In this document: positions 46,942-64,000 of the stretch, piece by piece | How positions within the stretch are numbered: the first letter of the stretch is position 1 | Layout of the letters: every line of letters begins with the position of its first letter | Assembly (NCBI GenBank): GCA_036170915.1 | Contig: JAVHQC010000015.1 | Coordinates: 32,001 to 96,000, forward strand | Direction of reading: 5' to 3' | DNA: 64,000 nt | From: Cyanobacteria bacterium auto_48_18 | Lineage (GTDB): Bacteria; Cyanobacteriota; Vampirovibrionia; Obscuribacterales; Obscuribacteraceae | Notes under the pieces: generated by a model | Seen by the model: only the letters and a program-made list of their open reading frames with translations | What the model was told of the DNA's origin: nothing | The model's database searches: none | Translations under genes and position numbers: made by a program

Positions 46942-49209
46942 ATGCGACTCAATCTTCAACTTAAGATTTCGCATAAGGGATTTATTCTCGTATTAGTTCC
47001 GCTCGTTTTCGAACTTGTGTTTTTGATTGTGCTCTCGGTACTTTTGCAACAAGCCGAAGTTGAAGTGCAGCGACAGGTGCGTTCAAAGGCAATTATTTCG
47101 CAGGCCAATGCTCTTTCCAAATTGTTCTATGATGCAGGCGTAGCCATGGGTGGCTACAGTATTACCAAGAGCCCGTTGTTCTCAGATCGTTATGACAAAA
47201 TCGTGCGCCAGATTCCCCTCGATTTAGCCGAACTTAAAGGGCTCGTTGGCGACAATGATAAACAGCAGTTGATTTTAGGACGACTGCAGACCATTACATC
47301 AGACGGTTTGAAAATTTTAGGTGAAGCTAAAGCGGCCATTGACGACAACCGTGTAGACGTGGCGCAGTTCCGTGCCAGACACATGTACAAACAAATCAGG
47401 CAGCTGGCTGACCAGTTGCAAGACGAGTTGAAAGGGCTGACTGAAGACGAAAGGAAAATTGAAAGCGAGAGTCCGGAACAACAAAATAGATCCCGGGCGG
47501 CGGTAAAGATGTTCCTGGTCTTTGGTGTCGTACTGAATATTGGTATAGCCTTCTTGCTCTTGTATTATTTCTTGCGCAGCATTTCTACTCGTCTAAATAC
47601 AGTGACAGACAACTCATTTAGATTGGCTCGTGGTCAGAAATTGCGGCCGCCTCTCAGTGGCAACGATGAAATCGCGCAGCTCGATGACGCATTCCGTAGT
47701 ATGGCTGAAGCACTGGCAGAGGCCAGCCGTAAAGAACGAGCCGTAATCGAAAATGCTGCTGATGTAATTTGTTCTATTGATATGGATGGCAAATTCGTGG
47801 CCGTTAACCCCGCATCTTACGAGAGCTGGGGCTTCTATCCTGATGAGCTGATGGGGCGCCGCTTTATCGAAGTGATCATGCCTGAAGATGTGCCTGATAC
47901 CATCCGCGCCGTGCGCTCCGTGCGTGGTGCCACTAGTAAAGTCAACTTTGAAAACCGCGTCAAGAAACGCGATGGCAGTATGGTTAACGTCTTGTGGTCG
48001 GCAGACTGGTCCGAAAAAGACCGAGCATTATTCTGCGTTGCCCACGACATTACTCAGCGTAAATTAGTAGAAGAAGCGATTAAGGCTAACGAAGCTCGCA
48101 TTCGCAACATCATCAATAACATGATGGTGGGCCTGATTATTGTCACCCGCGATGGTTTAATCGAGTCAATCAACCCGCGCACAGAGTCAATGTTCTCCAC
48201 TCGCAGCCATGAAATGCTTGGCCGCCACATGATGTCGCTCTTTGCTGACGCTCGCCATTTCTCAGTCAACGACCCCAGTGATCGCCAGGCCTTTATGGAA
48301 ACATTGTTCACTAAAGCCTTGAATCGCATTGGTGAATTTGACTGCTTGTCCGCCAATGGCGAAGATTTCCCTGTGGAAATTTCATTGACCGAATTCGTTT
48401 CTCCAGATGGTGCGGTGCGCTTTATGGCTAACGTACTTGATGTGTCTGAGCGCAAAGAAGTAGAGCGCATGAAGAAAGAATTCGTTTCTACTGTGTCACA
48501 CGAGCTGCGCACGCCTCTCACATCTATTCGTGGATCGCTCACACTGTTGGCTGTGGGTGCCATGGGCTCGCTGCCTGAGCAGGCGAAGAAAGTAGTGACT
48601 ATTGCCGAACGCAACACCATAAGATTGATTGGCTTGATTAACGATATTCTCGATGTTGAAAAACTCGAAGCAGGCAAACTCGACATGGAGCTGGCAGACG
48701 TAGGCGTGGCTTCAATTTTCGAGCGTTCAGAACAAGCGGTCAATACATTTGCTGCTAACAATGGTGTTCTACTCGAGATGCAACCCAGTGGCGAAATGGT
48801 GCATGCCGATGGCGACCGTCTGGTGCAGGTGCTCGTCAACTTGATTTCCAACGCCGTTAAATTCTCGCCCAAAGGTGCGGCAGTGACCGTAAGCTCGGCT
48901 GAAATTCCTGGCGGATTTATTGAAGTGCACGTCACTGATAGAGGCCGCGGTATTCCAGAGAGCTTTAAAAACAGATTGTTTCAAAGGTTCCAACAAGTTG
49001 AAGCATCAGATGCTAAGAAGAAAGGTGGTACCGGTCTTGGTCTGGCCATCTGTAAGGGTATCGTTGAGCAACACGGTGGCACCATTGGTGTCGAATCGGA
49101 AGAAGGTAAGGGTTCCACATTCTGGTTCCGCATTCCGAAGGCGCACAATGTCCCAAAGCACCAGGTGCAGGTGCTTGAGCCTGCCGCTTTGCAATCGCGT
49201 CCTTTCTAA
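46942..49209 (+). CDS. Membrane sensor histidine kinase: TM-helical (CHASE3-like) sensor-TM-HAMP-PAS-PAS-HisKA-HATPase
   Basis: Two TMs, DEIAQL HAMP, two PAS/PAC (HDIT, LDVS), VSHELRTPL, NLISNA, GTGLGL. Confidence 0.95.
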   Translation: MRLNLQLKISHKGFILVLVPLVFELVFLIVLSVLLQQAEVEVQRQVRSKAIISQANALSKLFYDAGVAMGGYSITKSPLFSDRYDKIVRQIPLDLAELKGLVGDNDKQQLILGRLQTITSDGLKILGEAKAAIDDNRVDVAQFRARHMYKQIRQLADQLQDELKGLTEDERKIESESPEQQNRSRAAVKMFLVFGVVLNIGIAFLLLYYFLRSISTRLNTVTDNSFRLARGQKLRPPLSGNDEIAQLDDAFRSMAEALAEASRKERAVIENAADVICSIDMDGKFVAVNPASYESWGFYPDELMGRRFIEVIMPEDVPDTIRAVRSVRGATSKVNFENRVKKRDGSMVNVLWSADWSEKDRALFCVAHDITQRKLVEEAIKANEARIRNIINNMMVGLIIVTRDGLIESINPRTESMFSTRSHEMLGRHMMSLFADARHFSVNDPSDRQAFMETLFTKALNRIGEFDCLSANGEDFPVEISLTEFVSPDGAVRFMANVLDVSERKEVERMKKEFVSTVSHELRTPLTSIRGSLTLLAVGAMGSLPEQAKKVVTIAERNTIRLIGLINDILDVEKLEAGKLDMELADVGVASIFERSEQAVNTFAANNGVLLEMQPSGEMVHADGDRLVQVLVNLISNAVKFSPKGAAVTVSSAEIPGGFIEVHVTDRGRGIPESFKNRLFQRFQQVEASDAKKKGGTGLGLAICKGIVEQHGGTIGVESEEGKGSTFWFRIPKAHNVPKHQVQVLEPAALQSRPF

Positions 49210-49328
49210 GCGTTAATTTAAAGCCAAAATGGTTTTCACCAGGCATTTTTGGTGAACACTTTTAAGTGTATTGTTTTAGATATTCATTTGGATCAGGGAT
49301 CAAATTTAGTCTTTGGGGAAATTGTTAA

Positions 49329-49736
49329 ATGAAGGTTCTCATAATTGATGACGAAGAGGACTTTCGCACGGTGGCCAGCTCATGCTTGGGCCTGCTGGGC
49401 GGAGACACTGTGCGGGAAGCCTGCTCTGGTAAAGAGGGGCTTGAGATGGCCAGAGAAGAGGTGCCTGATGTAATTCTTCTCGACCTGGTGATGGAAGGCA
49501 TGGATGGTATGCAAACTCTGGCCAATCTGCGTGAAATTCCGGAAGCTGCCACTGTGCCAGTGATTTTTTGCACCACCAAAGGCATGTTTCCTGAGTTCGA
49601 AGAAATGAAAAAGCTGGGTGCCCTGGCGGTGATCACCAAGCCTTTCGATCCTCTAAAGCTCTCTGAGCAGATCAAAGATATCCTCAAAGGTGCCGGTTTT
49701 GCGGCAGCTAGTGCCACCAATGCGGCGGGAAACTAG
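49329..49736 (+). CDS. Single-domain response regulator
   Basis: VLIIDD, ILLDLVM, FCT, TKPF. Confidence 0.93.
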   Translation: MKVLIIDDEEDFRTVASSCLGLLGGDTVREACSGKEGLEMAREEVPDVILLDLVMEGMDGMQTLANLREIPEAATVPVIFCTTKGMFPEFEEMKKLGALAVITKPFDPLKLSEQIKDILKGAGFAAASATNAAGN

Positions 49737-49828
49737 CTACAAAGAAACAGGGGAACTAAAGCAATACTGGGTATTAAGTGTGTAATGGCGATTTTGGCGT
49801 TTAGAAAGAAGAAAATTTAGGAGAGACA

Positions 49829-50206
49829 ATGAGAGTTCTCATCATTGACGATGAAGAAGATACCCGTTCGATTGCCAGTATGAGCCTAACTATTCTTGGC
49901 GGATTGGAAGTAATCGAAGCAGAAAATGGACAGGACGGCGTGAACAAAGCGGCGGCAGAACAGCCTGATGTGATCTTGCTAGATATGATGATGCCCATCA
50001 TGGACGGACCAAGCACTCTCGAAGCGCTGCGCAGCAATGATCGCACTCGCAATATTCCTGTAATTTTCCTCACCGCTAAAGCTATGACTTCAGAAATTGA
50101 AAGACTGAAACGCATGGGCGCGCGCGGCATTCTTACTAAGCCTTTTGATCCTACGGTTCTGGCTACTCAAATGAAAGCCATACTTGACACCACATCACCA
50201 AGCTAG
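49829..50206 (+). CDS. Single-domain response regulator, tandem paralog
   Basis: VLIIDD, ILLDMMM, FLTA, TKPF; AGGAG SD. Confidence 0.95.
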   Translation: MRVLIIDDEEDTRSIASMSLTILGGLEVIEAENGQDGVNKAAAEQPDVILLDMMMPIMDGPSTLEALRSNDRTRNIPVIFLTAKAMTSEIERLKRMGARGILTKPFDPTVLATQMKAILDTTSPS

Positions 50207-50255
50207 CAAGAATACGCCTGCAAGAACACTAAGGGTACAAGGGGTTAGATAAGGC

Positions 50256-51914
50256 ATGGCTTCCTGGCAGGAAACCTTCTCGGAACTTAAGAGTCAATAT
50301 GTGCAGCGCTCAACTGATAGGCTTGCACAAATCATTGAGTTGTTCACAAAACTGCTGTCGAACCCATTGAACAAAGACCTGGCTAACCAACTCAGTCGCC
50401 ACTACCATTGGCTGGCTGGCTCCGGCAGTATGTACGGTTTTCAGAGAGTATCAGCGCTGGGTGTGGAAGGCGAAAAATTGTGCGAAACAATTATGCGCCA
50501 GAACGGGCCGGCTTCGCCTGCCGATCTCGAGCGCATGAAAGCGCTTTTGCAAGAACTTTCAACTCAGTTTACCGGGGGCGATGAAGCACCGGAAACTACT
50601 AATTTAGGCAAAGTCAGAACTGTTGCTCATTCAGGCCGGCAGGAAGTGCTGGTGATTGACGATGATCAAAAAGATCTGGAATCTTTGAAAAAGTTGGTGG
50701 AAGAAAACGATTTTGGTTTTCGCAGTGCCAGATCTTTTGCCACCACTATTGGTGAATTAGAAAAGCGCATGCCCGAAGGCATGATTTTAGAGATACCCTT
50801 GCCTGACGGTGATGCATATGAGCTGGTGGAGCGCATTCGCGCTATGCCCGGCGGTGACGAGATGGCCATTATTATCGTCTCTAAGCAAACCGGATTTTTA
50901 GACAAAGTGCGATCGATTCATTGTGGTGCTGATGCTCACTTTGAAAAACCAATTGATGCCAAAGCGATGTTTCGTCGTTTGCGTTATTTACTCGACAAAC
51001 GCTACCAAGAAACTCCTCGCATTCTTTCTGTTGAAGATGATCCTGATCAAGCTGCCTTTATTCGCGCTTTTCTCGAATCGGCCGGCTATCAGGTGCGCAC
51101 TTGCACTGATCCTAAAAATTTCGAATCATACATGTCGGCCTTCCAACCTGATCTGGTTTTACTAGATGTGATGTTGCCTGGCATGACCGGCTATGAACTA
51201 GCGCGCTACGTGCGTCAAGACGAAAGGCATGCCACGTTGCCTATTCTCTTTTTGACTACTCAGGGTCAAATCGATGCCCGCATCGAGAGCGCCAGGGCTG
51301 GTGGCGACGATCACCTGGTCAAACCTGTGCCGCCGGCTTTGCTATTGAGCTCAGTTTCTTCACGGCTCGAACGAGCAAGATTTCTCAAAACACTTCTGCA
51401 CAGAGATGGTCTGACCAGTTTGCTCAACCATACTTCTTTCATGGAGCAGGCCAATACTGTTATTGCTCAGCGCAAAAGACATGCCGGCTTTACAGTTTTG
51501 ATGTTGCTCGACATTGATTATTTCCGCTCTATAAATGAACGGCACGGCTACCCTGGAGGGGATAAAGTGCTGGTCGCCCTTTCGCTGCTTCTAAGGCGGC
51601 GGCTCAGGCAGTCAGATATTATCGGACGCTATGCTGGAGATGAATTTGCCATCATTGCTGAAGGTCTCGACGAAAAAGAAGCACTGGCATTATCGTCGCG
51701 CTTGATTGCAGATTTTGCCGCCATTCAACACTCGACCCTTTCGCACGCCGGATTTTACGCCACCTGCTCGTCTGGCATTGCCGTGCTCGATGCCAAAACT
51801 ATGACAGTAGAAACCTGGGTCAAATCAGCCTTTCGCGCCTTGCAAGAAGCAAAGGCAGCCGGCCGCAATTGCGCCGTTACATTCCACGAAGAGATGAACT
51901 CTGTTTCTAAGTAA
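50256..51914 (+). CDS. Hpt-REC(pseudo)-REC-GGDEF protein
   Basis: HWLAGSG Hpt; REC1 MILEIP; REC2 LLDVMLP; DGLT..LN, DIDYF, RQSD, RYAGDEF. Confidence 0.92.
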   Translation: MASWQETFSELKSQYVQRSTDRLAQIIELFTKLLSNPLNKDLANQLSRHYHWLAGSGSMYGFQRVSALGVEGEKLCETIMRQNGPASPADLERMKALLQELSTQFTGGDEAPETTNLGKVRTVAHSGRQEVLVIDDDQKDLESLKKLVEENDFGFRSARSFATTIGELEKRMPEGMILEIPLPDGDAYELVERIRAMPGGDEMAIIIVSKQTGFLDKVRSIHCGADAHFEKPIDAKAMFRRLRYLLDKRYQETPRILSVEDDPDQAAFIRAFLESAGYQVRTCTDPKNFESYMSAFQPDLVLLDVMLPGMTGYELARYVRQDERHATLPILFLTTQGQIDARIESARAGGDDHLVKPVPPALLLSSVSSRLERARFLKTLLHRDGLTSLLNHTSFMEQANTVIAQRKRHAGFTVLMLLDIDYFRSINERHGYPGGDKVLVALSLLLRRRLRQSDIIGRYAGDEFAIIAEGLDEKEALALSSRLIADFAAIQHSTLSHAGFYATCSSGIAVLDAKTMTVETWVKSAFRALQEAKAAGRNCAVTFHEEMNSVSK

Positions 51915-53220: not shown

Positions 53221-54516
53221 ATGCCGGTGCCGAAGCGAGTTTTAATGCTGTCCTGGGAGTATCCGCCAAGAATCATCGGTGGTTTAGCTCGGGTAGTTTG
53301 GGCCCTCTCTCGCGAGCTAGTCAAGCGCGGCTGCGAAGTTCACGTAGTAACAGCTGACCACCCGGGCCAGCCTGAGCACGAAATGGCTGACGGCGTGCAT
53401 GTGCACCGTGTCAAAACTCAGACTGATACCACTCCAGATTTTCTTACTTGGGTCAATCGCCTAAATTTTGGCTTGCTGCAATACGCCATTCAAATTCATC
53501 GCAAGACTCCTTTTGATATTATTCACGCGCATGACTGGATGGTGGCAGACGCTGCCTGGGTGATGAAGAGTGGTTTCGGCATCCCTTTTGTTGCCACCAT
53601 GCACGCCACTGAGTCTGGCCGCATGCACGGTATTCATGGTGATTTGCAAAGCTACATTCACCAGATGGAATGGCGTTTGACCTTCGAAGCCTGGGAGGTA
53701 ATAGTCAATTCCAACTCTATGCATGATGAGCTGCAGCGTTCGTTTAAAATGCCGTCCGACAAGATTGTAATTATTCCCAACGGTACTGATCCCGAGACTT
53801 TCAATTTTCCTTTCACCAATCATGCCATTCGCAGTAATTATGCTCGCGATCAAGAGCAGATTATTCTTTACGTCGGTCGTATGGTGCGCGAAAAAGGTGT
53901 GCAGGTTCTGCTTGATGCTGCTCCTCGAGTGCTCTCTGAACGGCCCGGCACGCAGTTTCTTATGGTCGGCACCGGCTATTATCTGGAAGATTTAAAACGT
54001 CAGGCCTGGAGCAACGGTGTCGGTGAGAACGTACATTTCCTTGGTTATATTGGTGACAGCGAGCTGCTCGATCTCTATAAGGTTGCCGATGTAGTTTGCA
54101 TCCCCAGTCTTTACGAGCCATTTGGTATCGTCGCTTTAGAAGGCATGGCCGCTAAAGTTCCGGTGGTCACTTCAGATGTTGGCGGGCTGAAAGACTTTGT
54201 AGAAAATATGGTCACTGGTGTCACCACTTATGCCGGCGACTCCACCTCGCTTGCCTGGGGCCTGCTGCAAGTCTTACGCAATCCGGAGCTGGCACAGCGC
54301 TTGCGCGAAACCGCTTACGACAAAGTCACCCATATTTACAACTGGAAAGTAATTGCCAGTCGTACTTATGAGGTCTATGAAAAAGTTCTCAATGAGGCCA
54401 ACATGCAAAAAGCCAATCAAGAAACTTCACCAGATGCGGTGGCACCTGCCGAAGTAATCGGTAAGACCATGGCACAATTGCCTACCGCCGCTAAAGCGGG
54501 AAAGACTAAAAACTAG
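53221..54516 (+). CDS. GT4-family glycosyltransferase
   Basis: MLSWEYPP..GGL, HAHDW, YVGR...KG, PSLYEPFGIVALE. Confidence 0.93.
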   Translation: MPVPKRVLMLSWEYPPRIIGGLARVVWALSRELVKRGCEVHVVTADHPGQPEHEMADGVHVHRVKTQTDTTPDFLTWVNRLNFGLLQYAIQIHRKTPFDIIHAHDWMVADAAWVMKSGFGIPFVATMHATESGRMHGIHGDLQSYIHQMEWRLTFEAWEVIVNSNSMHDELQRSFKMPSDKIVIIPNGTDPETFNFPFTNHAIRSNYARDQEQIILYVGRMVREKGVQVLLDAAPRVLSERPGTQFLMVGTGYYLEDLKRQAWSNGVGENVHFLGYIGDSELLDLYKVADVVCIPSLYEPFGIVALEGMAAKVPVVTSDVGGLKDFVENMVTGVTTYAGDSTSLAWGLLQVLRNPELAQRLRETAYDKVTHIYNWKVIASRTYEVYEKVLNEANMQKANQETSPDAVAPAEVIGKTMAQLPTAAKAGKTKN

Positions 54517-54559
54517 TTTAGCTCGTTGTTTTAATTCGTAGATAGCTCAGGAGAAATGT

Positions 54560-57127
54560 ATGAAAGCGGTAATCATGGCTGGTGGTTCCGGAACACGTCT
54601 GAGACCCCTAACTTGCAATCTACCTAAGCCTATGGTGCCGGTAGGAAACAGGCCCATGGCTGAGCATGTGGTGAACTTGCTGAAAAAGCATAATTTCCGC
54701 GATATAGTTTTTGCTCTGCACTATCTACCTGATGCCATTCGTGATCACTTTGGCGACGGCAGCGATTTTGGTGCCAATATCAGCTATTCCATTGAAGAAG
54801 GCAAACCCCTTGGTACTGCCGGTTGCGTCAAGATGGTGCAAGACCATCTTGATTCTACTTTCGTTGTGATTTCGGGCGACAGTTTAACTGACATGGACCT
54901 CTCTGCCGCTCTTAAATTCCACAAAGAGAAAAAATCGAAAGCTACCCTCATTCTTAAAAGGGTAGAAAATCCTCTAGATTATGGCGTGGTTATTTGTGAC
55001 AACGATCAGCGCATTCAGCGTTTTGTGGAAAAGCCTGGTGCCAGTGAAATCTTTTCCGACACTGTAAATACCGGAACCTATATTTTAGAACCTGAAGTTC
55101 TGCTCTACATTGTTATGGGCCGCGAACAAGATTTTTCCAATGACCTCTTCCCTCTGCTCTTGCTCAGAAATGAGCCTATGTATGGTTACGTAGCTGACGG
55201 TTACTGGTGCGACATCGGCAACTTGGCTGTATACCGTCAGGCTCATAAAGACGTGCTCGACGGACTTGTGGAAATCGAGTGCGACTTGCCGCAGATTCAA
55301 CCGGGCGTGTGGGTTGGTCAGGGCACGCAGATAGACTCTTCCGTTAAGCTTGAAGCACCGGTAATGATCGGCAAGAATTGTCGCATCGGCAGAGAGACTA
55401 TGATTTCTCCTCACACCACCCTTGGTGACAATGTGGTAGTGCAAGAGAAAGCTTCTCTCAAGCAACCGGTTGTCTGGTCAAATGTCTATGTTGGTGCAAA
55501 GGCAGAATTGCGTGCTTGCGTAGTCTGCAACAACGCCACCATCCATAGTTCCGCTTCACTGCTGGAAGGGGCGATCATCGGCGACAATTCTTCCATCGGT
55601 CAAGAAGCGTCAGTCAACCCTGATGTGCGCATCTGGCCTGACAAAAATGTAGACTCCGGCGCTAAAGTGCTGACGTCTCTGATTTGGGGCACTAGAGCAC
55701 CCCGCACCTTATTTGGTGCCCACGGTGTGCGTGGTCTCGCCAATGTAGAAATCACTCCTGAGTTTGCCGTTAACCTTGCCGCCGCATATGGTGCAACTTT
55801 AAAAGGTGGGCCAGTGCTGGTTAGTCGCGATTACTGGAAAGTCAGCCAGATGATCAGTCGCACCATTGTCTCTGGTCTTGTATCAGTGGGCATCGAAGTG
55901 CAAAATCTAGAATCTATGTCGTTGCCGATTTCAAGACACTACGTCAAGACACAACGAGCTGCTGGCCTGGTTCACGTGCGCGTTTCACAAAGAGAAATCG
56001 AAAAAATCACAATCGAATTTTTCGACAATCAGGGTGTGGCGATAACTAAATCGATGGAGCGCAAAATTGAAAGCACCTTCTTCAAAGAAGACTTCCCGCG
56101 CTGTTCTCCAGCTGATGTAGGCACCATCTCCTTCCCCAGTCGCGTGCGAGAGTACTATGTTGACGAGTTTCTCAACCATGTTAAAGGGCAGGTCTTCGAA
56201 GAAGACAAAGTGCCTTTCTGTATCGTACCGGGCACAAACTACACTCGGGTAACAAAAACCGGCAACCTGGCCACACACGCTCCAAAAGCTGTGATTGACT
56301 ATGCCATGGCTGAAACCGGTGTGCTGCTGCCAGACTTGTTGGGGCAACTGGGCATTGAGACAGTGGTGCTCAATTCATCCATTCGCAACACCCCGCCTAA
56401 ACAAGAAGAGCGCATTACTATGCGCAAACAACTGGCTGATGTGGTCAAGGCGCTAAACGCCGATCTCGGCGTGCAGATTGGTCGCAATGGTGAACAGATG
56501 ACTCTGGTTGACGAAACCGGTCAGGTGATTCGCGGCGAGCTACTTTTGGCTACAGTGGCCGATATTATTTTGCGTGACAAGCCGGGTCGTTCTATTGTTG
56601 TGCCGGTAAATTCAAGTTCTATTGTTGAGCGCATTGCCTCCCGCTACAACTGCAAAGTTGTTCGCTGCAAAGCATCTGAAACTGAGATTGGTAGTACTAC
56701 TGCGCGCATGGAAGACGCAGTGGTGGGTGGCAGCGCTAATGGCTGCTTTATTTTCCCAGAATTCCAAAACGGCTACGATGCCATGTTTGCAGTGGGTCAG
56801 GTGCTTGAACACCTCACCTACCAGGGTCGCACTCTTCATCAAGCAGTGACTGACTTGCCGCCACTGTTCTATCAGGTTGATTCAGTACATTGCCCGTGGG
56901 AGCGCAAAGGGCGAGTGATGCGCTTGCTTGTGGAAAAACACCACGACCGGCCCATGGAGCTTCTGGACGGTGTCAAAATTCAAACCAGACCTGACCACTG
57001 GATTTTGATTTTGCCGGATGCCGTAGAACCTTTGGTGCACGTTTATGCTGATGGTGCTGATTTGCAACAAACGTCAGCGGATCTCAACGAATATACGCAG
57101 ATGGTGCGATATTTGCAGCGCGCTTAG
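54560..57127 (+). CDS. Mannose-1-phosphate guanylyltransferase-like NTP transferase + left-handed beta-helix + degenerate phosphomannomutase-like domain
   Basis: AGGSGTRLRPLT...PKP, LGTAG, FVEKP, YWCDIG; hexapeptide repeats; LFG..GVRG.AN start of a PGM/PMM fold. Confidence 0.92.
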   Translation: MKAVIMAGGSGTRLRPLTCNLPKPMVPVGNRPMAEHVVNLLKKHNFRDIVFALHYLPDAIRDHFGDGSDFGANISYSIEEGKPLGTAGCVKMVQDHLDSTFVVISGDSLTDMDLSAALKFHKEKKSKATLILKRVENPLDYGVVICDNDQRIQRFVEKPGASEIFSDTVNTGTYILEPEVLLYIVMGREQDFSNDLFPLLLLRNEPMYGYVADGYWCDIGNLAVYRQAHKDVLDGLVEIECDLPQIQPGVWVGQGTQIDSSVKLEAPVMIGKNCRIGRETMISPHTTLGDNVVVQEKASLKQPVVWSNVYVGAKAELRACVVCNNATIHSSASLLEGAIIGDNSSIGQEASVNPDVRIWPDKNVDSGAKVLTSLIWGTRAPRTLFGAHGVRGLANVEITPEFAVNLAAAYGATLKGGPVLVSRDYWKVSQMISRTIVSGLVSVGIEVQNLESMSLPISRHYVKTQRAAGLVHVRVSQREIEKITIEFFDNQGVAITKSMERKIESTFFKEDFPRCSPADVGTISFPSRVREYYVDEFLNHVKGQVFEEDKVPFCIVPGTNYTRVTKTGNLATHAPKAVIDYAMAETGVLLPDLLGQLGIETVVLNSSIRNTPPKQEERITMRKQLADVVKALNADLGVQIGRNGEQMTLVDETGQVIRGELLLATVADIILRDKPGRSIVVPVNSSSIVERIASRYNCKVVRCKASETEIGSTTARMEDAVVGGSANGCFIFPEFQNGYDAMFAVGQVLEHLTYQGRTLHQAVTDLPPLFYQVDSVHCPWERKGRVMRLLVEKHHDRPMELLDGVKIQTRPDHWILILPDAVEPLVHVYADGADLQQTSADLNEYTQMVRYLQRA

Positions 57128-57267
57128 TGATCTCAAGGCAAAAGCTACAATTAATCAAAAGTCGGTGTGATTTCCGGTACTTGAGGCTATTAAGCTACTA
57201 TTGAAGAGATTTAAATTGCGCCAATCTGGGCATACCAGACTTGGCTGGCAAGGAGGCCTTGTTTGTT

Positions 57268-58077
57268 ATGTTCGGAAAAAATGATGGTAGACAGCAACCC
57301 AATAAGTCTGGAAAAGAACGCAAGTTCTTAGACGGTAATCCGGGTAACCCAACGCAGCAAGCGCAACAAGGGCCTGGTCGTCAGGTCGACCGCTCCATGT
57401 TTTCCAACGGTGCCATCGCTCCTCAACCTGGTCAGCAAGCTGATTGGTCAATGGCGGTGTCAGAGCAGATTCTCGTTTATCATGAGTCTGAGCCGGTTGC
57501 CCATGGTCAAGACTGGATGTCGCAGCTCAAGCAAGAATCGTTGCAATTTCTCGCTGATCAGCGTGGCGTGCATCTGCAAGAAGTTTATCGAGAGTCAATC
57601 TACAAGTCAGGCATCGCCATCCTTGTTGACAAGATTTATGGCCTGCTGCAGCGCTACATGTATGAGTTTAACCAGGTGGCTAACGGCACCGAGTTGCATG
57701 TCACCGGTTCGATTTCAGGAGATGTAACTGAGGTCACTCGCTACAATCGTTTCAGAGAAGCCGAAGAAACCAAAACCTATTTCCGCTGTCGCTTTTCCAC
57801 CAAGCTCTGCTCACTTTGTGTGCGCGGTTGCGACGACATTGTCGAAGCATTTATCGTGCCTACCAGTAAAGTCATGGCTTTGAGTCGCACCGAAAATGAT
57901 TATCCGCCGCTGGCAACCATTCAAGTACGCATCACCGAACAAGGCATGATGTGGCGTATGCAAGACAGCAATCCGCCGGTAGAAACACTTGATCAGCTTT
58001 GTATGTGGTTATTTTCGGCTATGGTGCAAGAAACCAAGAATTATGCCCGTCTAAATGGCGACGAGGCCGTCGGATAA
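57268..58077 (+). CDS. Hypothetical protein with a Q/P-rich N-terminus and a globular C-terminal domain
   Basis: AGGAGG SD; long ORF co-oriented with its neighbours. Confidence 0.75.
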   Translation: MFGKNDGRQQPNKSGKERKFLDGNPGNPTQQAQQGPGRQVDRSMFSNGAIAPQPGQQADWSMAVSEQILVYHESEPVAHGQDWMSQLKQESLQFLADQRGVHLQEVYRESIYKSGIAILVDKIYGLLQRYMYEFNQVANGTELHVTGSISGDVTEVTRYNRFREAEETKTYFRCRFSTKLCSLCVRGCDDIVEAFIVPTSKVMALSRTENDYPPLATIQVRITEQGMMWRMQDSNPPVETLDQLCMWLFSAMVQETKNYARLNGDEAVG

Positions 58078-58290
58078 TACACCTGAGCAAACCGCAGAGA
58101 AGGCCACCAGGTCTTCTCTTTCGCTTTGTAAGCACCAGATTGATGACACCATCTCTGGTATTATTTTGAGGAAAAATGCCTTTTGCCATGTTTTAATACA
58201 TGTAGATTTAATTCTCATACAAGTGGTAATAACTTGATAGTAAGAGTTGTTTTTCCTCAAGTCTCTTGAAAATCTAGGAGCTAATTTTCT

Positions 58291-60057
58291 ATGGTTGCTA
58301 TCAATCCCGAGATGTTGCGGGAGCTTCTCGAAGAGTTCACCGAGAAGGAAGAAGTTACTCGCGAAGAGATGAATGCTATCAACCAGCAGATAGCGGAGTT
58401 AGAAAAACGCATCGAATCAAGTAAAGCAAAGCTTGCCGGGCTGAATAAAGATCGCGACAAGATTATAGCCATGAGAGAACGCTATCTTTCAGGCAATTGG
58501 AAACTGCAGCTCAGCAACATGGCAGAAAATCATGGCGCTGCCGCGATTCATACTGGTGCTCAATCTTCAAATAATCCAGTTGCAGCTGTACCTGCCTCTG
58601 CACCTGCAGCGGAACCTGCAACTACTCCTAGTGTGGCGGCTCCTACGCCTGCGGAAGGCAGAGCGGCTCGCCGTGCTGCACGCGAAGCTGCTAATGCAGC
58701 GAATCAAGCTCAAGCTCCAGCGGCCCCTACACCAGTTGAAGCTCAAGCTGTTCCACCTGTAGCTACAGCTGCTGAAGAGCAATCTGCTCCTGCTCCTACT
58801 CCTGATCTTGCTCCTGCTCCTGCATCTGATGTGACTCCAGTAGTGGAGGCGCCCCCAATAGACCAACCATATGTGCAGGATGTCTCCAGTCAGGCTGTCG
58901 AGCCGGAACAGCCCTATTTCGAAGATGAGGACACCGCTACTTTTGGTGTTGCAGACCAATCAGATACGGCAATCGAACATGCGCCGCCTGATGATCCGAT
59001 CATGAGTTCCTTTAATATGGCTGCCAGTGCTCCTGATCTTTCCTCTTCTTTTGCGCAAACTGTTCCAGTTTCAGCTCCAGCTCCTGCTCCGGCAGCAGAA
59101 CCAGCCGCTGAATTGGAAAACTCTGGATTTTCGTGGAGTTCCACTGCTATTAATGCGGTGGAGGCGGCACCTAGTCCCGTTATGTCTAATCCAGTAGTAT
59201 CAGCTCCCGCCATGCCTGCTAATCCCTGGGGAGATCCTCCACAGGCGGTAGCAGCGCCTCCTGTTGATCAACGCCAGAGCCCCGCCGACATCTGGGGGCA
59301 CCCAGAGGCAGTTCAAACCCCTCCTCAAACCCCTCCTCAAACACCATCTCCTGCGGCTCCTGCCGCCGGAGGTTGGGGCGATTTTGGTGAAGATTGGCAA
59401 ATAGCTGAGGCCCAAAAAGCTACAGGCAACAAAATACCCACTGTCACTCAGCCAGTCAGCGAACCTCCAGCTGAGAGCACCGGCGGCGGATGGGGGCAAC
59501 CGGCCTCACCATGGGGCTCACCTCAAACACCTGCTGCCGATACTGGTGGTGGCGGATGGGGGCGACCAACGGCCAGCCGTCAGAATATGCCCGCAATGGC
59601 ACCACCTGGAATGTTACCTGGACCGGCCATTAATCCTAATCCCGCTTCTAGTGCGCCGGTTGAAGCACCACCTGTGGCCGACGCCTGGGGTCGCAGCTCG
59701 CAATCTACAGCAGGGTGGGGAACACAAACCAGTCCATGGGGCGATCCTGCAGCCCAGGCCCAAGCTCCTCAAGCGCCTCAAGCGCCGACACCAGCCCCGG
59801 CACCGGCACCAATGCAGCCAACCAGTTTTGAACAGCCACCAGCAAGCGAAGCCGCACCGTCCAGTTTAGCCAGAGCAGCTGATGGGGCTTTGATTAGTCC
59901 TGTTAAAGGTCGTCGTCGTTCAACCGGCGCTCCGGCAGCATTCGATTGGGGCTCTTCTGATTCCAGCGGTGCTGCAGATCCCAATCAGGCGGGCGGTTCA
60001 GAAGATCCAAACGACAACAAAAAAATCGACGACGTCCTCAAGGGCCTTTTTAAATAG
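58291..60057 (+). CDS. Coiled-coil + intrinsically disordered WG-repeat protein
   Basis: AGGAG SD; heptad N-terminus; Ala/Pro/Ser/Gln-rich body with 10 WG dipeptides; C-terminal KKIDDVLKGLFK. Confidence 0.85.
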   Translation: MVAINPEMLRELLEEFTEKEEVTREEMNAINQQIAELEKRIESSKAKLAGLNKDRDKIIAMRERYLSGNWKLQLSNMAENHGAAAIHTGAQSSNNPVAAVPASAPAAEPATTPSVAAPTPAEGRAARRAAREAANAANQAQAPAAPTPVEAQAVPPVATAAEEQSAPAPTPDLAPAPASDVTPVVEAPPIDQPYVQDVSSQAVEPEQPYFEDEDTATFGVADQSDTAIEHAPPDDPIMSSFNMAASAPDLSSSFAQTVPVSAPAPAPAAEPAAELENSGFSWSSTAINAVEAAPSPVMSNPVVSAPAMPANPWGDPPQAVAAPPVDQRQSPADIWGHPEAVQTPPQTPPQTPSPAAPAAGGWGDFGEDWQIAEAQKATGNKIPTVTQPVSEPPAESTGGGWGQPASPWGSPQTPAADTGGGGWGRPTASRQNMPAMAPPGMLPGPAINPNPASSAPVEAPPVADAWGRSSQSTAGWGTQTSPWGDPAAQAQAPQAPQAPTPAPAPAPMQPTSFEQPPASEAAPSSLARAADGALISPVKGRRRSTGAPAAFDWGSSDSSGAADPNQAGGSEDPNDNKKIDDVLKGLFK

Positions 60058-60215
60058 CGCTTGAAATCAATTGAGACGGTTTGCCGGCGGGTGCTGATAA
60101 GACAGCCGTCATACAGTTCGTAAAGCTGTTTGTTAACATATGCTGCGTTGATAGCGGTTTCGCCGCTGCTTTTTGCTTGGACAGAGCCGACAGGCTGCTT
60201 TTGATGGGAGACGCA

Positions 60216-60428
60216 ATGAAACAAGTTTGTTCAATGATGGCGGGTGTGGTAATTGAAATCCTCGTCAAGCCAGGCGACCAGGTTAGCGAAGGCACTGACG
60301 TAGCCATTCTTGAATCAATGAAAATGCAATTGCCAGTGGCTTCCACTGAGGCCGGCAAGGTTGAAGAAGTCAAAGTTACCGGCGGAGATTTTGTCAACGA
60401 AGGCGACTTGATCATCACGCTGAGCTAA
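60216..60428 (+). CDS. Stand-alone biotin carboxyl carrier protein (YngHB-like)
   Basis: ESMKM biotinylation motif, VKPGDQV, GDFVNEGD; ATG 60216 with GGGAG SD. Confidence 0.92.
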   Translation: MKQVCSMMAGVVIEILVKPGDQVSEGTDVAILESMKMQLPVASTEAGKVEEVKVTGGDFVNEGDLIITLS

Positions 60429-60449
60429 TCTATTTATTAGTGGTTAATT

Positions 60450-61388
60450 ATGTTCGAAGCATTGCCAGCCAGCATTCAAGTATTTGAAGTCGGCCCCCGC
60501 GACGGGTTGCAGAATGAGTCGGCTATGGTCGCAACTGCCGATAAAATCAAGTTGATAGAAGCAATTGCTGCCGCCGGTCTCAAGCAAATTGAAATCACTT
60601 CTTTTGTCTCGCCCAAATGGATACCACAATTAGCTGATGGTGCGGCTCTTGCCAAAGAGTTGCACTTAGCTCCGTCGCTTGGTGTGCGCACCTCTGCCCT
60701 GGTGCCAAATTTAAAGGGCTATGAAGCTGCCGTGCAGGCCGAGCTCAAGCAAATCAATTTGTTCATGTCGGCTTCGCAGTCGCACAGCAAGAAAAATATC
60801 AATAAAACTATCGACGAGGCAGTGGCTGCCATGGCTGAAGTGGCCACAGTTGCTAAGGCTGATGGCAAGCGGGTGCGCTGTTATCTTTCTACGGTTTTTG
60901 CCTGCCCTTATGAAGGAAAAATTGCACCCAGCGCGGTTTTTGAAATTGTGCAGAAACTTTTGGCAATGGATGTGGACGAAATTTCGCTGGGTGACACTAT
61001 TGGCGCGGCCACACCGAAAGAGGTCTTTCAGATGGTCAAGGCACTTTCTAGAGATGTATCCCTGTCAGCACTGGCTCTGCATTTTCATGATACGCGCGGT
61101 ACAGCACTGGCTAATGTGGTGGCAGGGTTGGAGAGCGGCGTCACTATTTTTGACAGCAGTCTGGGCGGCCTTGGTGGTTGCCCTTATGCGCCGGGTGCTT
61201 CGGGAAATCTAGCTACTGAAGATCTCGTCTATATGCTGCATGGTATGGGCATTAACACTGGCATTGATTTAGAAAAACTAGTAGATGCCGGCCTATTGGC
61301 ACAAAGAATCTTGGGCAAAAAATTGCCAGGTCGTTATTTGATGGCTCGGTTGGCGGAGCGCGAACAGTCTATTAAAGCCAGCGCTTGA
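60450..61388 (+). CDS. Hydroxymethylglutaryl-CoA lyase
   Basis: EVGPRDGLQNE, SFVSPKWIPQ, LHFHDT, GLGGCPYAPGASGNLATED. Confidence 0.96.
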   Translation: MFEALPASIQVFEVGPRDGLQNESAMVATADKIKLIEAIAAAGLKQIEITSFVSPKWIPQLADGAALAKELHLAPSLGVRTSALVPNLKGYEAAVQAELKQINLFMSASQSHSKKNINKTIDEAVAAMAEVATVAKADGKRVRCYLSTVFACPYEGKIAPSAVFEIVQKLLAMDVDEISLGDTIGAATPKEVFQMVKALSRDVSLSALALHFHDTRGTALANVVAGLESGVTIFDSSLGGLGGCPYAPGASGNLATEDLVYMLHGMGINTGIDLEKLVDAGLLAQRILGKKLPGRYLMARLAEREQSIKASA

Positions 61389-61401
61389 GGTGGAATTGAC
61401 G

Positions 61402-62265
61402 ATGATAACTAAGGAAAGCGTTGCTATGACTGATGAAGTGCTCACTATAGAAAGAGAAGGCTCGATTGCCTGGCTTAAACTCAATCGTCCTAAAGTGATG
61501 AATTGCCTTAACCGTCCGCTATTGAATGCACTTTTGCAGGCCTGTAGTGAACTGGCCAACGATCGCCAGATTAGAGTCGTGGCTATCATCGGAGCCGGCA
61601 GCAAGGCTTTTTGCGCTGGCGCTGACCTGGCTGAGCGTAAGGGCATGACTCAAGGCGACACCCTCGATTATCTAGCTTTAATTCAGCGCACCATGCGAGC
61701 TATTGAAACATTACCGCAGGTGGTAATTGCAGCAATAAATGGCTCAGCCTGGGGTGGCGGATTTGAACTGGCACTAGCTTGTGATCTTAGAGTTATGGTT
61801 GACACCGCTCAGATGCGTTTGACTGAGGTCAAGCTTGGTATCATCCCTGGTGCTGGTGGCACTCAGCGCTTACCTCGCCTGATTGGTAAATCAAGAGCGA
61901 AAGAATTGATTTTGACTGCTGCACCTGTAACTGCTGAAAATGGCATGGCCATTGGCTTGATTCACCGGGTGGTCGAGCTAGAAGAGGGTTATATGAATAG
62001 CTCCGCCGGTAAAGCAGTGAGCGAAGGTGGTTATCTTGAACCTTTAATGGCTCAGGTAAGAACTTGGGCTGCAGAAATTGCTACAGCTGCACCACTCTCT
62101 TTGAGGCAAGCGAAAATAGCAATTGATCAAGGCTATGACCGCGATCTGGAAGCGGGCCTGGCTCTCGAAACTCGCGCTTATCTAGAGCTGGTTAATACAA
62201 AAGATCGACTGGAAGGTCTTTCGGCGTTTGCCGAGAAACGCTCACCTGTTTTTCTCGGAGAATGA
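61402..62265 (+). CDS. Enoyl-CoA hydratase (methylglutaconyl-CoA hydratase-like)
   Basis: FCAGADLAER, GGGFELAL.CD, EVKLGIIPGAGGTQRLPRLIG, AFAEKR; start at 61402 or 61426. Confidence 0.93.
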   Translation: MITKESVAMTDEVLTIEREGSIAWLKLNRPKVMNCLNRPLLNALLQACSELANDRQIRVVAIIGAGSKAFCAGADLAERKGMTQGDTLDYLALIQRTMRAIETLPQVVIAAINGSAWGGGFELALACDLRVMVDTAQMRLTEVKLGIIPGAGGTQRLPRLIGKSRAKELILTAAPVTAENGMAIGLIHRVVELEEGYMNSSAGKAVSEGGYLEPLMAQVRTWAAEIATAAPLSLRQAKIAIDQGYDRDLEAGLALETRAYLELVNTKDRLEGLSAFAEKRSPVFLGE

Positions 62266-62377
62266 CAAAGCAGTGACAAATCGATTTTCAAAACAAGCTC
62301 AAGATTTGGAAGCAATCTGGCAAAAGACAATTTCAAATAAGAACGATTTTCCCAGTTTTTCTGGATACAAAGAAAAG

Positions 62378-63049
62378 ATGAACGGCAACGGTAGTAAACA
62401 TAATCAAATCATCGAAACTCCAACCAGAGAAACATTGCCTCTGCCGGTATCTGCTTTGATTCTCTGCGGCGGTAAATCGCAGCGAATGGGCAGGCCTAAA
62501 GCTTTCTTGCCATACGGTGGCACCACGATGATCAATCATATCTTGGGAGTAGTGAAGGACCTTTTTGCTGAGACTTTTTTGATCGCTAACGAACCGGAAG
62601 CTTTCGAAGATTTCGAAGTTGATGTGGTCAAAGATATTCTTCCTTATCGTGGCCCTCTGGGCGGCATACTTTCAGGGCTGCTGGTGGCACAGCATCCTCA
62701 CGCTTTTGTCATTGCCTGTGATATGCCTCTTGTAGAGCCTAAATTGATTAGGCAGCTAGTCAGTCAGCGCCACGACCATGATGTTGTGGTGGCATCACAC
62801 GAAGATGGCATTGAGCCGCTGCTGGGCGTATATTCTAAAAACTGTATCAAACCTTTAGAAGAGTCGTTATTTAACGGTGATCTCTCACTAAAAGATTTTC
62901 TTTCTGGTCTCAATTCAGCTACTTTTGAAATTGACGAGAGTAAAGAAGAGTCTGGTTTACCAGCTTATTTCAATGTCAATACGCCGCAAGATTACAGCCG
63001 CCTGGTAACTGGCGGTGCTATTCAAATATTCCCCAATAAACGTAACTAA
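62378..63049 (+). CDS. mobA: Molybdenum cofactor guanylyltransferase
   Basis: LCGGKSQRMGRPKA, D...GPLGGI, ACDMP, EPL..Y, FNVNTP. Confidence 0.92.
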   Translation: MNGNGSKHNQIIETPTRETLPLPVSALILCGGKSQRMGRPKAFLPYGGTTMINHILGVVKDLFAETFLIANEPEAFEDFEVDVVKDILPYRGPLGGILSGLLVAQHPHAFVIACDMPLVEPKLIRQLVSQRHDHDVVVASHEDGIEPLLGVYSKNCIKPLEESLFNGDLSLKDFLSGLNSATFEIDESKEESGLPAYFNVNTPQDYSRLVTGGAIQIFPNKRN

Positions 63050-63143
63050 AATCTCCTTGCGCACTCGCTCCAGCGGCTTAGTGTCCCGGTTTGACATACA
63101 GTCTCCTGGCAACCTGTTAAGATTGAATAACAAGCGAGGACGT

Positions 63144-64000
63144 ATGACAGAACCCAAAAAACTGATTTCTCTGCTACGTACTTTTGAGGAACAGGCCGCC
63201 GAGCGGGCCACAAAGCTAATTGCAGAACAGAAAGGCATCGAACTTGCATCTTTGAGCGCGCGCGCCGACAAAGATTTGGTGCAGGCACTGAAAGCACAGG
63301 CCCAGGCGGAACTGCTCAGTGAGCAGGAATTGCACCTGGTCGAAAGTGCCACGAAACTGGCTGAAGCTCTAGCCTCTCTGGCGGTACAAACAGTGGAGAT
63401 CGAGGCAGCCAAACTGTTGTCTTTGCAAAGGCAAGATTTTGTTGCCACGCTCACCCATGATTTGAAGAATCCGCTTATAGGGGCTAATCGTCTCTTGGAG
63501 TTGTTCATTGCCGGGCAACTTGGTCCGATAAATGATCAACAGACAGAGTTATTGACTGAGCTGAGAAAAAGCAATAGCGAATCGCTGACTTTGATAAACA
63601 CTCTCAGTGATGTCTATCGCTATGAAACGGATCCTGGTGAGATCTCCCGGGAAGAAGCACCACTGATTCCTATTGTTGAAGCATCTTATCGAGAAATACA
63701 GAACTGGGCACATGTGAATAATGTGCAGACAAGTCTGGTAGTTCCGGATGAGATGAAGCCTTGTTATGTGGATAGTTCGCCCATTCGCCGTTTGCTTGAT
63801 AATTTGCTGGGCAATGCCATGAAGTTTGCCGGCCCTGATGGTTGTGTTGACGTTAGCGTGACAAAGGCCGATGGCGAAGCGATTATCGAAGTGCATGATG
63901 ATGGTGTAGGCATTCCTAAACAGGAGAGAATACATCTCTTTAAGCGATTTTCTCAAGGTGCTTTAGGCAAGCGTTACAGTGGTGGCAGTGGCTTAGGTCT
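63144..64000 (+). CDS. Cytoplasmic histidine kinase with a helical N-terminus (runs off the window; absent from the ORF track)
   Basis: ATG 63144 with GAGGA SD; my translation gives QDFVATLTHDLKNPL, NLLGNAMKF, DDGVGIP and GSGLG. Confidence 0.9.
   Translation, partial: MTEPKKLISLLRTFEEQAAERATKLIAEQKGIELASLSARADKDLVQALKAQAQAELLSEQELHLVESATKLAEALASLAVQTVEIEAAKLLSLQRQDFVATLTHDLKNPLIGANRLLELFIAGQLGPINDQQTELLTELRKSNSESLTLINTLSDVYRYETDPGEISREEAPLIPIVEASYREIQNWAHVNNVQTSLVVPDEMKPCYVDSSPIRRLLDNLLGNAMKFAGPDGCVDVSVTKADGEAIIEVHDDGVGIPKQERIHLFKRFSQGALGKRYSGGSGLG

Follow-up and report, generated by a model that had tools for sequence, protein, structure and literature searches.

A predicted rod, linker and probable docking helix in Obscuribacterales, and their possible Trp-Gly connection to a proposed MglA polarity compartment

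What does a bacterial protein do with ten Trp-Gly (WG) motifs set in a long region of predicted disorder between two helices? The question is raised by an open reading frame for 588 aa in a 64,000-nucleotide stretch of Cyanobacteria bacterium auto_48_18 (Obscuribacterales, a non-photosynthetic order related to the cyanobacteria; contig JAVHQC010000015.1, positions 32,001 to 96,000), which we call the window. An earlier note, made from the sequence alone, had described the product as a WG-repeat protein with a hub- or condensate-like architecture. We compared the gene, its protein and its neighbours across the order, and asked which other proteins of the host genome share the motif. The features discussed are collected in Table 1.

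The reading frame encodes 13 Trp, of which 10 are followed by Gly, all between residues 313 and 553 and in exactly the contexts given in the earlier note; the binomial probability of this is about 1e-10, whether the expectation is taken from the Gly fraction of the protein or from the rate at which Gly follows Trp in the genome (6%). The helix–disorder–helix layout described there is also what AlphaFold2 predicts from an alignment of 22 rows, with pLDDT above 90 for helix 6-66, 75-86 for helix 573-587, and below 50 for 413/588 residues in the middle of the protein. The linker (residues 88-572) has a net charge of -34 and contains 17.7% Pro; its more acidic first part (88-305) contains 1 Trp, and the second (306-560) holds 11 Trp and 11% Gly. 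Inspection of the sequence revealed no long hydrophobic run, and searches with the protein returned no match above cut-off in Pfam, none in NCBIfam and no usable feature match in the ESM Atlas; Rfam had no match at window positions 54000-64000. In an RNA run (6% of words), contigs of relatives cover the upstream gene and the 5' end of this one, which is not proof of transcription.

Table 1. Features in the window (first nine rows, window positions) and elsewhere in the host genome, G000 (last three rows)
Feature	Position	Strand	Basis or remark
Gene, 588 aa	58291..60057	+	Open reading frame; family spans the order, one long copy per genome
N-terminal helix, residues 6-66	58306..58488	+	Predicted antiparallel coiled coil; homologue is the tail-less 74-aa paralog
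Linker, residues 88-572	58552..60006	+	Acidic, Ala/Pro-rich, predicted disordered (AlphaFold2, composition)
Conserved Arg-rich island GRAARRAARE, residues 123-132	58657..58686	+	Genus level only, 11/89 rows
WG sticker zone, residues 313-554, 10 WG	59227..59952	+	Clade-specific
Conserved island, residues 524-554 (SSLARAADGAL, Arg run, AFDWG)	59860..59952	+	WG-clade marker; present in 25/89 rows (duplicates included)
C-terminal amphipathic helix, residues 573-588	60007..60054	+	Consensus D-D-T-V-K-S-I-N-D-A-L-R-G-L-F, 115/148 representatives
Upstream 278-aa gene	57241..58077	+	Adjacent in only some members of the order
Downstream block: biotin carrier, HMG-CoA lyase-like, enoyl-CoA hydratase, MobA-like	60201..63049	+	Most stable neighbours
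Roadblock protein, 1,547 aa	G000:C35:117455-122098 (L134:2455-7098)		46 Trp, 21 WG; top WG count in genome
MglA GTPase	G000:C29:43975-44550 (L147:1477-2055)	minus	E 2.9e-79 against the solved Myxococcus protein
Tail-less 74-aa paralog	G000:C35:176513-176737 (L135:1513-1737)		Helix alone, homologous to the N-terminal rod

To delimit the family we searched with a profile built from the first 76 residues. It matches 104/107 Obscuribacterales genomes, including 39/39 near-complete ones, and returns two weak matches (E ~3e-4, in long coiled-coil frames) from 300 other genomes of the phylum; the two genomes of family f41 have no match to the rod–linker–helix family. The records behind the 30 related loci are mostly titled Obscuribacter, Obscuribacterales or Melainabacteria; two, L004 and L023, are titled Flavobacterium and Bryobacterales on gene content of the Obscuribacterales type, and are probably mislabelled bins. 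Among the papers searched, none deals with such a family, as judged by title or the start of the abstract. It is an undescribed family that hardly extends beyond the Obscuribacterales.

Among representatives at 50% identity (150, reduced to 148 by dropping two giant repeat proteins as coiled-coil noise), two elements make up the conserved core, an N-terminal helix of 65 aa and a C-terminal helix that is near-invariant. The columns of the latter are conserved at K 96, S 72, I 93, N 90, D 83, A 95, L 97, R 82, G 71, L 100 and F 100% (115/148 representatives), with an acidic patch preceding it. The linker between them ranges from 37 to 655 aa. Because the first helix is order-wide, the end helix is kept and the linker is variable, we read the conserved protein as a rod, a leash and a docking helix. 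The earlier description of a new helix–disorder–helix protein is upheld, and the ends of the protein are strongly conserved. In some Phe-rich members the terminal motif recurs internally in degenerate form, linkers in some other members are Phe-rich or Tyr-rich, and genus g20 keeps the WG motifs and lacks the terminal helix.

In 92/107 genomes the N-terminal profile matches at least twice, the second match being a protein of 69-80 aa that consists of the helix alone, without a tail (HHalign probability 98.9 for rod and paralog). Upstream of the paralog gene lies a serine acetyltransferase-like gene in 20/20 loci; on its other side, 15/20 have a gene for a zinc-ribbon membrane protein. Complex prediction for the N-terminal helix with the paralog scored 0.65, against 0.00 for the best of three controls, which were chosen irrespective of coiled-coil nature; the mark is one that 116/157 solved pairs and 2/215 mismatched pairs reach, rates that are roughly applicable to a prediction from our own alignments. 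At least 92% of contacts are shared between runs, the partner pLDDT is at least 83, and the predicted contacts 24-48, 45-23 and 59-13 describe an antiparallel arrangement along the whole length. Antiparallel pairing is also suggested by the charge of the rod helix, since its first half is acidic and its second half basic. Rod and paralog are predicted to pair as an antiparallel coiled coil. A rod homodimer would explain the pass equally well: close cousins also reach the mark (10/12 colicin pairs), so that the prediction treats heterodimer and homodimer alike.

Upstream of the rod–linker–helix gene, the 278-aa gene is adjacent in all 31 loci compared first and in 32/60 wider loci, and an 855-aa gene replaces it in many distant genera; because it is a neighbour in part of the order only, we rejected it as an obligatory partner. 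Its product is modelled at a pLDDT of 82.6, with no Foldseek match and a weak frataxin/CyaY-like fold at a common level of similarity (Z 7.0-7.7). The same domain forms the N-terminal part of 510-aa histidine-kinase-like proteins encoded upstream in L021, L023 and L025. Elsewhere in the window, positions 46942-51914 hold an ordinary-looking signalling cluster comprising a PAS histidine kinase, two single receivers and an Hpt-receiver-receiver-GGDEF protein. On the downstream side, genes for the biotin carrier, the HMG-CoA lyase-like protein and the hydratase follow in 29-30/31 loci, and the lyase-like gene has 42 matches over 60 short loci, the other family included, as would be expected of a scaffold for the biotin-dependent leucine/acyl-CoA enzymes encoded there. 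However, upstream genes are syntenic too in much of the order, so slow rearrangement may explain the linkage; terminator-like hairpins flank the gene, although at chance frequency (5 found, 3.7 expected), as are the promoter and terminator counts around it; and there is no family match to carboxylase subunits. We consider an enzyme scaffold very unlikely.

Contrary to the earlier note, the WG motifs are not the essence of the family: 129/148 representatives have none, and 7/148 have at least five. Among the related loci, 19 have 8-12 WG and 10 have none (one truncated locus excluded), and 6/60 further genomes are WG-rich. We built a tree of 39 rows from the conserved helix and the Roadblock domain of a second protein described below, with linkers excluded; in three rows the two proteins were joined on the premise that they come from one assembly. 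The WG-rich rows (genera g1, g20, g31 and g35) form one clade with support of 100/99, and the sequences indicate that WG motifs were gained once, in this clade. Two g25 genomes have a separate Trp expansion (17 and 15 Trp, mostly without Gly, the contexts being WA, WQ and WT), and a tree that joins them to the WG clade is rejected (p-AU 3e-126). None of the 12 linker Trp varies among nine close homologs of the genus, compared with invariance at 120/481 linker columns overall, and within the genus Gly is kept at 0.88 after Trp against 0.66 elsewhere. Between genera, whose linkers are 32-40% identical, 7-10 of the 12 Trp can still be aligned, and their total remains 12-14. Selection on the linker Trp is very probable. 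Conservation of WG number across diverged spacers, which the earlier note had asked of the orthologs, is therefore found inside one clade and is absent from the rest of the family. The Trp of the 588-aa protein are spaced no more evenly than in shuffles, 31% of which are as even.

Reiterated WG motifs brought the eukaryotic Argonaute hooks to mind in the earlier note, which proposed a search of the genome for a prokaryotic Argonaute (pAgo). As a bacterial hook resembling GW182 would demand, the host does encode a long pAgo of 761 aa (G000:C34, L136:15-3472; PADLOC pAgo_II), at a contig end. However, this pAgo adjoins a partner of its own, an Aga helical-REase gene, and it is sporadic in the order: Piwi matches occur in 6/107 genomes, 3/39 near-complete ones and 1/14 others in the genus (the genomes being incomplete), whereas the WG form is fixed in its clade. 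PMC12477606 describes Trp pockets as conserved in animal AGOs, as having arisen in the eukaryotic AGO clade and as highly variable in pAgos. Because only 6/107 genomes have a pAgo, we rejected the hook on its distribution and give this reading almost no chance.

The motif is not a genome-wide quirk of disordered regions either. A disorder-like window is found in 44 open reading frames of the genome, and two of these have at least six WG inside 150 aa: the 588-aa protein and a Roadblock protein of 1,547 aa. Gly follows 81% of Trp in the former, 59% in the latter and 6% in the proteome. The Roadblock protein has a linker of ~1,100 aa with 45 Trp and all 21 WG, and its Roadblock domain is C-terminal. 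A degenerate ECF-like sigma gene directly precedes its gene, and its N-terminus, which Pfam does not match, has what we take to be a zf-HC2 anti-sigma-like pattern. The WG-rich Roadblock protein occurs in 100/107 genomes of the order; 25/35 complete copies have at least 10 WG (maximum 58), and a genome from the other family has a copy with 20. Trp spacing in the 1,547-aa protein is more even than in all 5,000 shuffles, an evenness that repeat expansion could also cause. Of the two proteins, this one is the stronger candidate for a WG scaffold.

The Roadblock protein also carries D-x-D-[ILM]-D-x-[IL]-F repeats. In Myxococcus, the C-terminal helix by which MglB binds MglA contains D150-D152, D154, L156 and F157 (PMC6785124), and the repeats fit these residues, a match that rests on those named in that paper; a PDB sequence search with the repeats gave no relevant match. 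The host genome encodes MglA, three Roadblock proteins and pilus-type ATPases. Its MglA keeps K181 and K185 of the pocket for the MglB helix, and does not adjoin a Roadblock gene in this genome. MglA occurs in 103/107 genomes of the order, the best copy being 83-100% identical and further copies being present in many, and in 35/151 sampled genomes of the class, namely all Obscuribacterales and two of f41. A second giant Roadblock protein, of 1,075 aa (G000:C20:82315-85542, minus strand; L138:1315-4542), has hydrophobic N-terminal segments, an acidic linker, four D-x-D-I-D-x-[IL]-F repeats and a Roadblock domain; it was matched in 4/5 genomes tested and is possibly a membrane-anchored multivalent regulator of MglA. 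DUF4388 has 14 matches in the 4.9 Mb genome, one of them close to the WG Roadblock gene.

The best reading of these observations, to which we give a probability of about 0.4, is that the 588-aa protein is a cytoplasmic tether, brought into an MglA polarity compartment by its WG stickers. The N-terminal helices would dimerise in a predicted antiparallel coiled-coil rod, and each near-invariant C-terminal helix would dock on a conserved protein partner. In a homodimer, each end of the rod would then carry a docking helix on a long leash, so that partners would be cross-linked, and pairing with the tail-less paralog would halve its valency. The clade-specific Trp-Gly motifs would act as weak stickers that admit the protein to the WG-rich Roadblock scaffold of the MglA compartment, which would probably be polar. 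Because their linker WG motifs are alike, the 588-aa protein and the giant Roadblock protein, itself a likely regulator of cell polarity, would likely gather in one compartment. In favour of the tether, the shared motif grammar is confined to these two proteins, WG is older in the Roadblock protein, and Myxococcus RomR offers a precedent in a disordered linker that ends in a Roadblock-binding helix (PMC12719032). Linker length and Trp density co-vary between the two proteins (rho 0.59 and 0.48 over 35 genomes that, as kin, are non-independent). Against it, most of the order pairs the WG-rich Roadblock protein with a WG-free version of the 588-aa protein, WG densities are uncorrelated (rho 0.19, p 0.28, 35 genomes), Trp spacing in the 588-aa protein is no more even than in shuffles, no MglA or Roadblock gene lies near the 588-aa gene in the loci compared, f41 has MglA and Roadblock genes without the rod–linker–helix family (0/2 genomes), and g20 has lost the tail helix.

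Sticker-driven co-assembly with the Roadblock protein at a polar location is on the unlikely side, and the net charge of -34 and 18% Pro would be expected to oppose self-condensation. A larger and somewhat less likely proposal is that the MglA switch of Obscuribacterales runs inside a Trp-Gly sticker condensate. Its scaffold would be the Roadblock protein of 1,200-1,850 aa, in which an anti-sigma-like N-terminus is fused to dozens of WG at even spacing, to putative GTPase-binding helices of the MglB type in tandem and to a Roadblock domain; the tether, built like PopZ in reverse, would have entered through one WG gain, with its valency set by the tail-less paralog.

The same protein could instead act at a membrane in the manner of MinD and FtsA, which the earlier note had mentioned, with the end helix in the inner membrane and the rod linking a division or cytoskeletal partner. 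The helix has the hydrophobic moment (0.75), the net charge of +2 over the last 12 residues and the Leu-Phe-basic end for this. However, known membrane-targeting helices keep their pattern more than their sequence, whereas here N, D, K and R of the polar face are 82-96% conserved and an acidic patch precedes the helix. Because the polar face is also near-invariant, we favour docking on a protein over docking on a membrane as the somewhat more probable role of the helix, and a membrane tether seems to us quite unlikely. The partner is probably not MglA through its MglB pocket, because the terminal helix has Arg or Lys at the place equivalent to the MglA-binding D154 of MglB. We also rejected a CheZ-like phosphatase, which we take the tail to resemble, as the coiled coil lacks a conserved D-x-x-x-Q, and a microcompartment encapsulation peptide, as the genome has no BMC shell gene.

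There are two further rivals. One is a self-sufficient scaffold built like PopZ in reverse, in which the coiled coil would form polymers, the end helix would bring in clients, the linker aromatics (Trp, Phe, Tyr) would do no more than adjust material properties, and MglA would play no part. The three modules of PopZ in reverse order (PMC12999525) would suit it, as would the absence of a DUF2497 match from the host genome (86% complete; 0 matches, Caulobacter control positive), the wide range of linker lengths, the independent, mostly Gly-free Trp expansion in g25 and the Phe-rich and Tyr-rich linkers elsewhere. We nevertheless think it unlikely, given that the predicted rod is made of two antiparallel chains with the whole helix as interface, and that position-specific Trp conservation and the preference for Gly suggest more than bulk stickiness. 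Alternatively, the WG motifs could serve as short linear motifs for a folded reader domain, as the DPW repeats of epsin bind the adaptor appendage, and the protein an adaptor that works without phase separation. The preferred context [SGDN][PADG]WG and the invariant Trp positions speak for such an adaptor, and the same type of motif recurs in a second, order-wide protein, so that a shared reader is possible. Yet we identified no reader domain, the flanks vary widely and g25 has WA, WQ and WT in place of WG; we rate an adaptor as improbable as a membrane tether, and return to the tether of the MglA compartment as the preferred reading.

Few bacterial condensate scaffolds are known, most of them assembling by helical polymerisation or charge, and aromatic sticker-spacer designs are known mainly from eukaryotes. 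The family offers a natural series in which the same conserved ends flank linkers of 37-655 aa with no stickers, Phe, Tyr, Trp or WG, on known branches, and it makes testable how proteins acquire entry to a compartment. If the Trp-Gly condensate reading is true, bacteria would use a GW182-like sequence grammar free of Argonaute, and the evolutionary gain of client status would be visible. The work also brings to light the MglA polarity system of a lineage for which we found no paper on such a system: among the mostly open-access sources searched, none treated disordered proteins of Obscuribacterales or MglA in Melainabacteria, and supplements of the MglA surveys PMC4316618 and PMC6785124 (S5 Fig) may list these genomes. 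Other Ala/Pro-rich linkers with Trp motifs occur in the host at L139:3380-4630, L140:117-1682 and L137:4145-6412; these comprise a receiver-like protein that has four W-G-[DE]-L-D repeats and ends in a hydrophobic segment, an HD-domain protein that shares the W-G-[DE]-L-D motif, and a protein of 755 aa that contains 18 Trp and matches no family.

Set beside known systems, the 588-aa protein resembles several in part. MinD and FtsA end in an amphipathic membrane-targeting helix after a linker, and its tail is likewise amphipathic, with a hydrophobic face and a basic flank, but it has no ATPase domain and the polar face is near-invariant. With the Argonaute hooks of GW182/TNRC6 and NRPE1 it shares reiterated WG in a disordered region, without a co-occurring Argonaute (6/107 genomes) or, according to PMC12477606, conserved Trp pockets in pAgos. 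PopZ of Caulobacter combines a helical oligomerisation domain, an acidic Pro-rich disordered linker of variable length and a short terminal helix (PMC12999525). The 588-aa protein has the same kind of linker between two helical ends by AlphaFold2 and composition, but its module order is reversed, there is no homology, and with no Pfam match it lacks the C-terminal DUF2497 (PF10691); PopZ forms trimers and hexamers, whereas an antiparallel dimer is predicted here, and the tail-less paralog and the Trp stickers of one clade set the family further apart. RomR, of the MglA/MglB/MglC module of Myxococcus, has a long disordered Pro-rich linker and a conserved end helix that binds the Roadblock-fold protein MglC and needs a Trp to do so (PMC12719032). 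Unlike RomR, which begins with a receiver domain, the 588-aa protein has no Response_reg match, a putative oligomerising N-terminal helix in that place and no sequence match to RomR; like RomR, it has a long disordered Pro-rich linker and a conserved end helix, in a host that encodes MglA and three Roadblock proteins.
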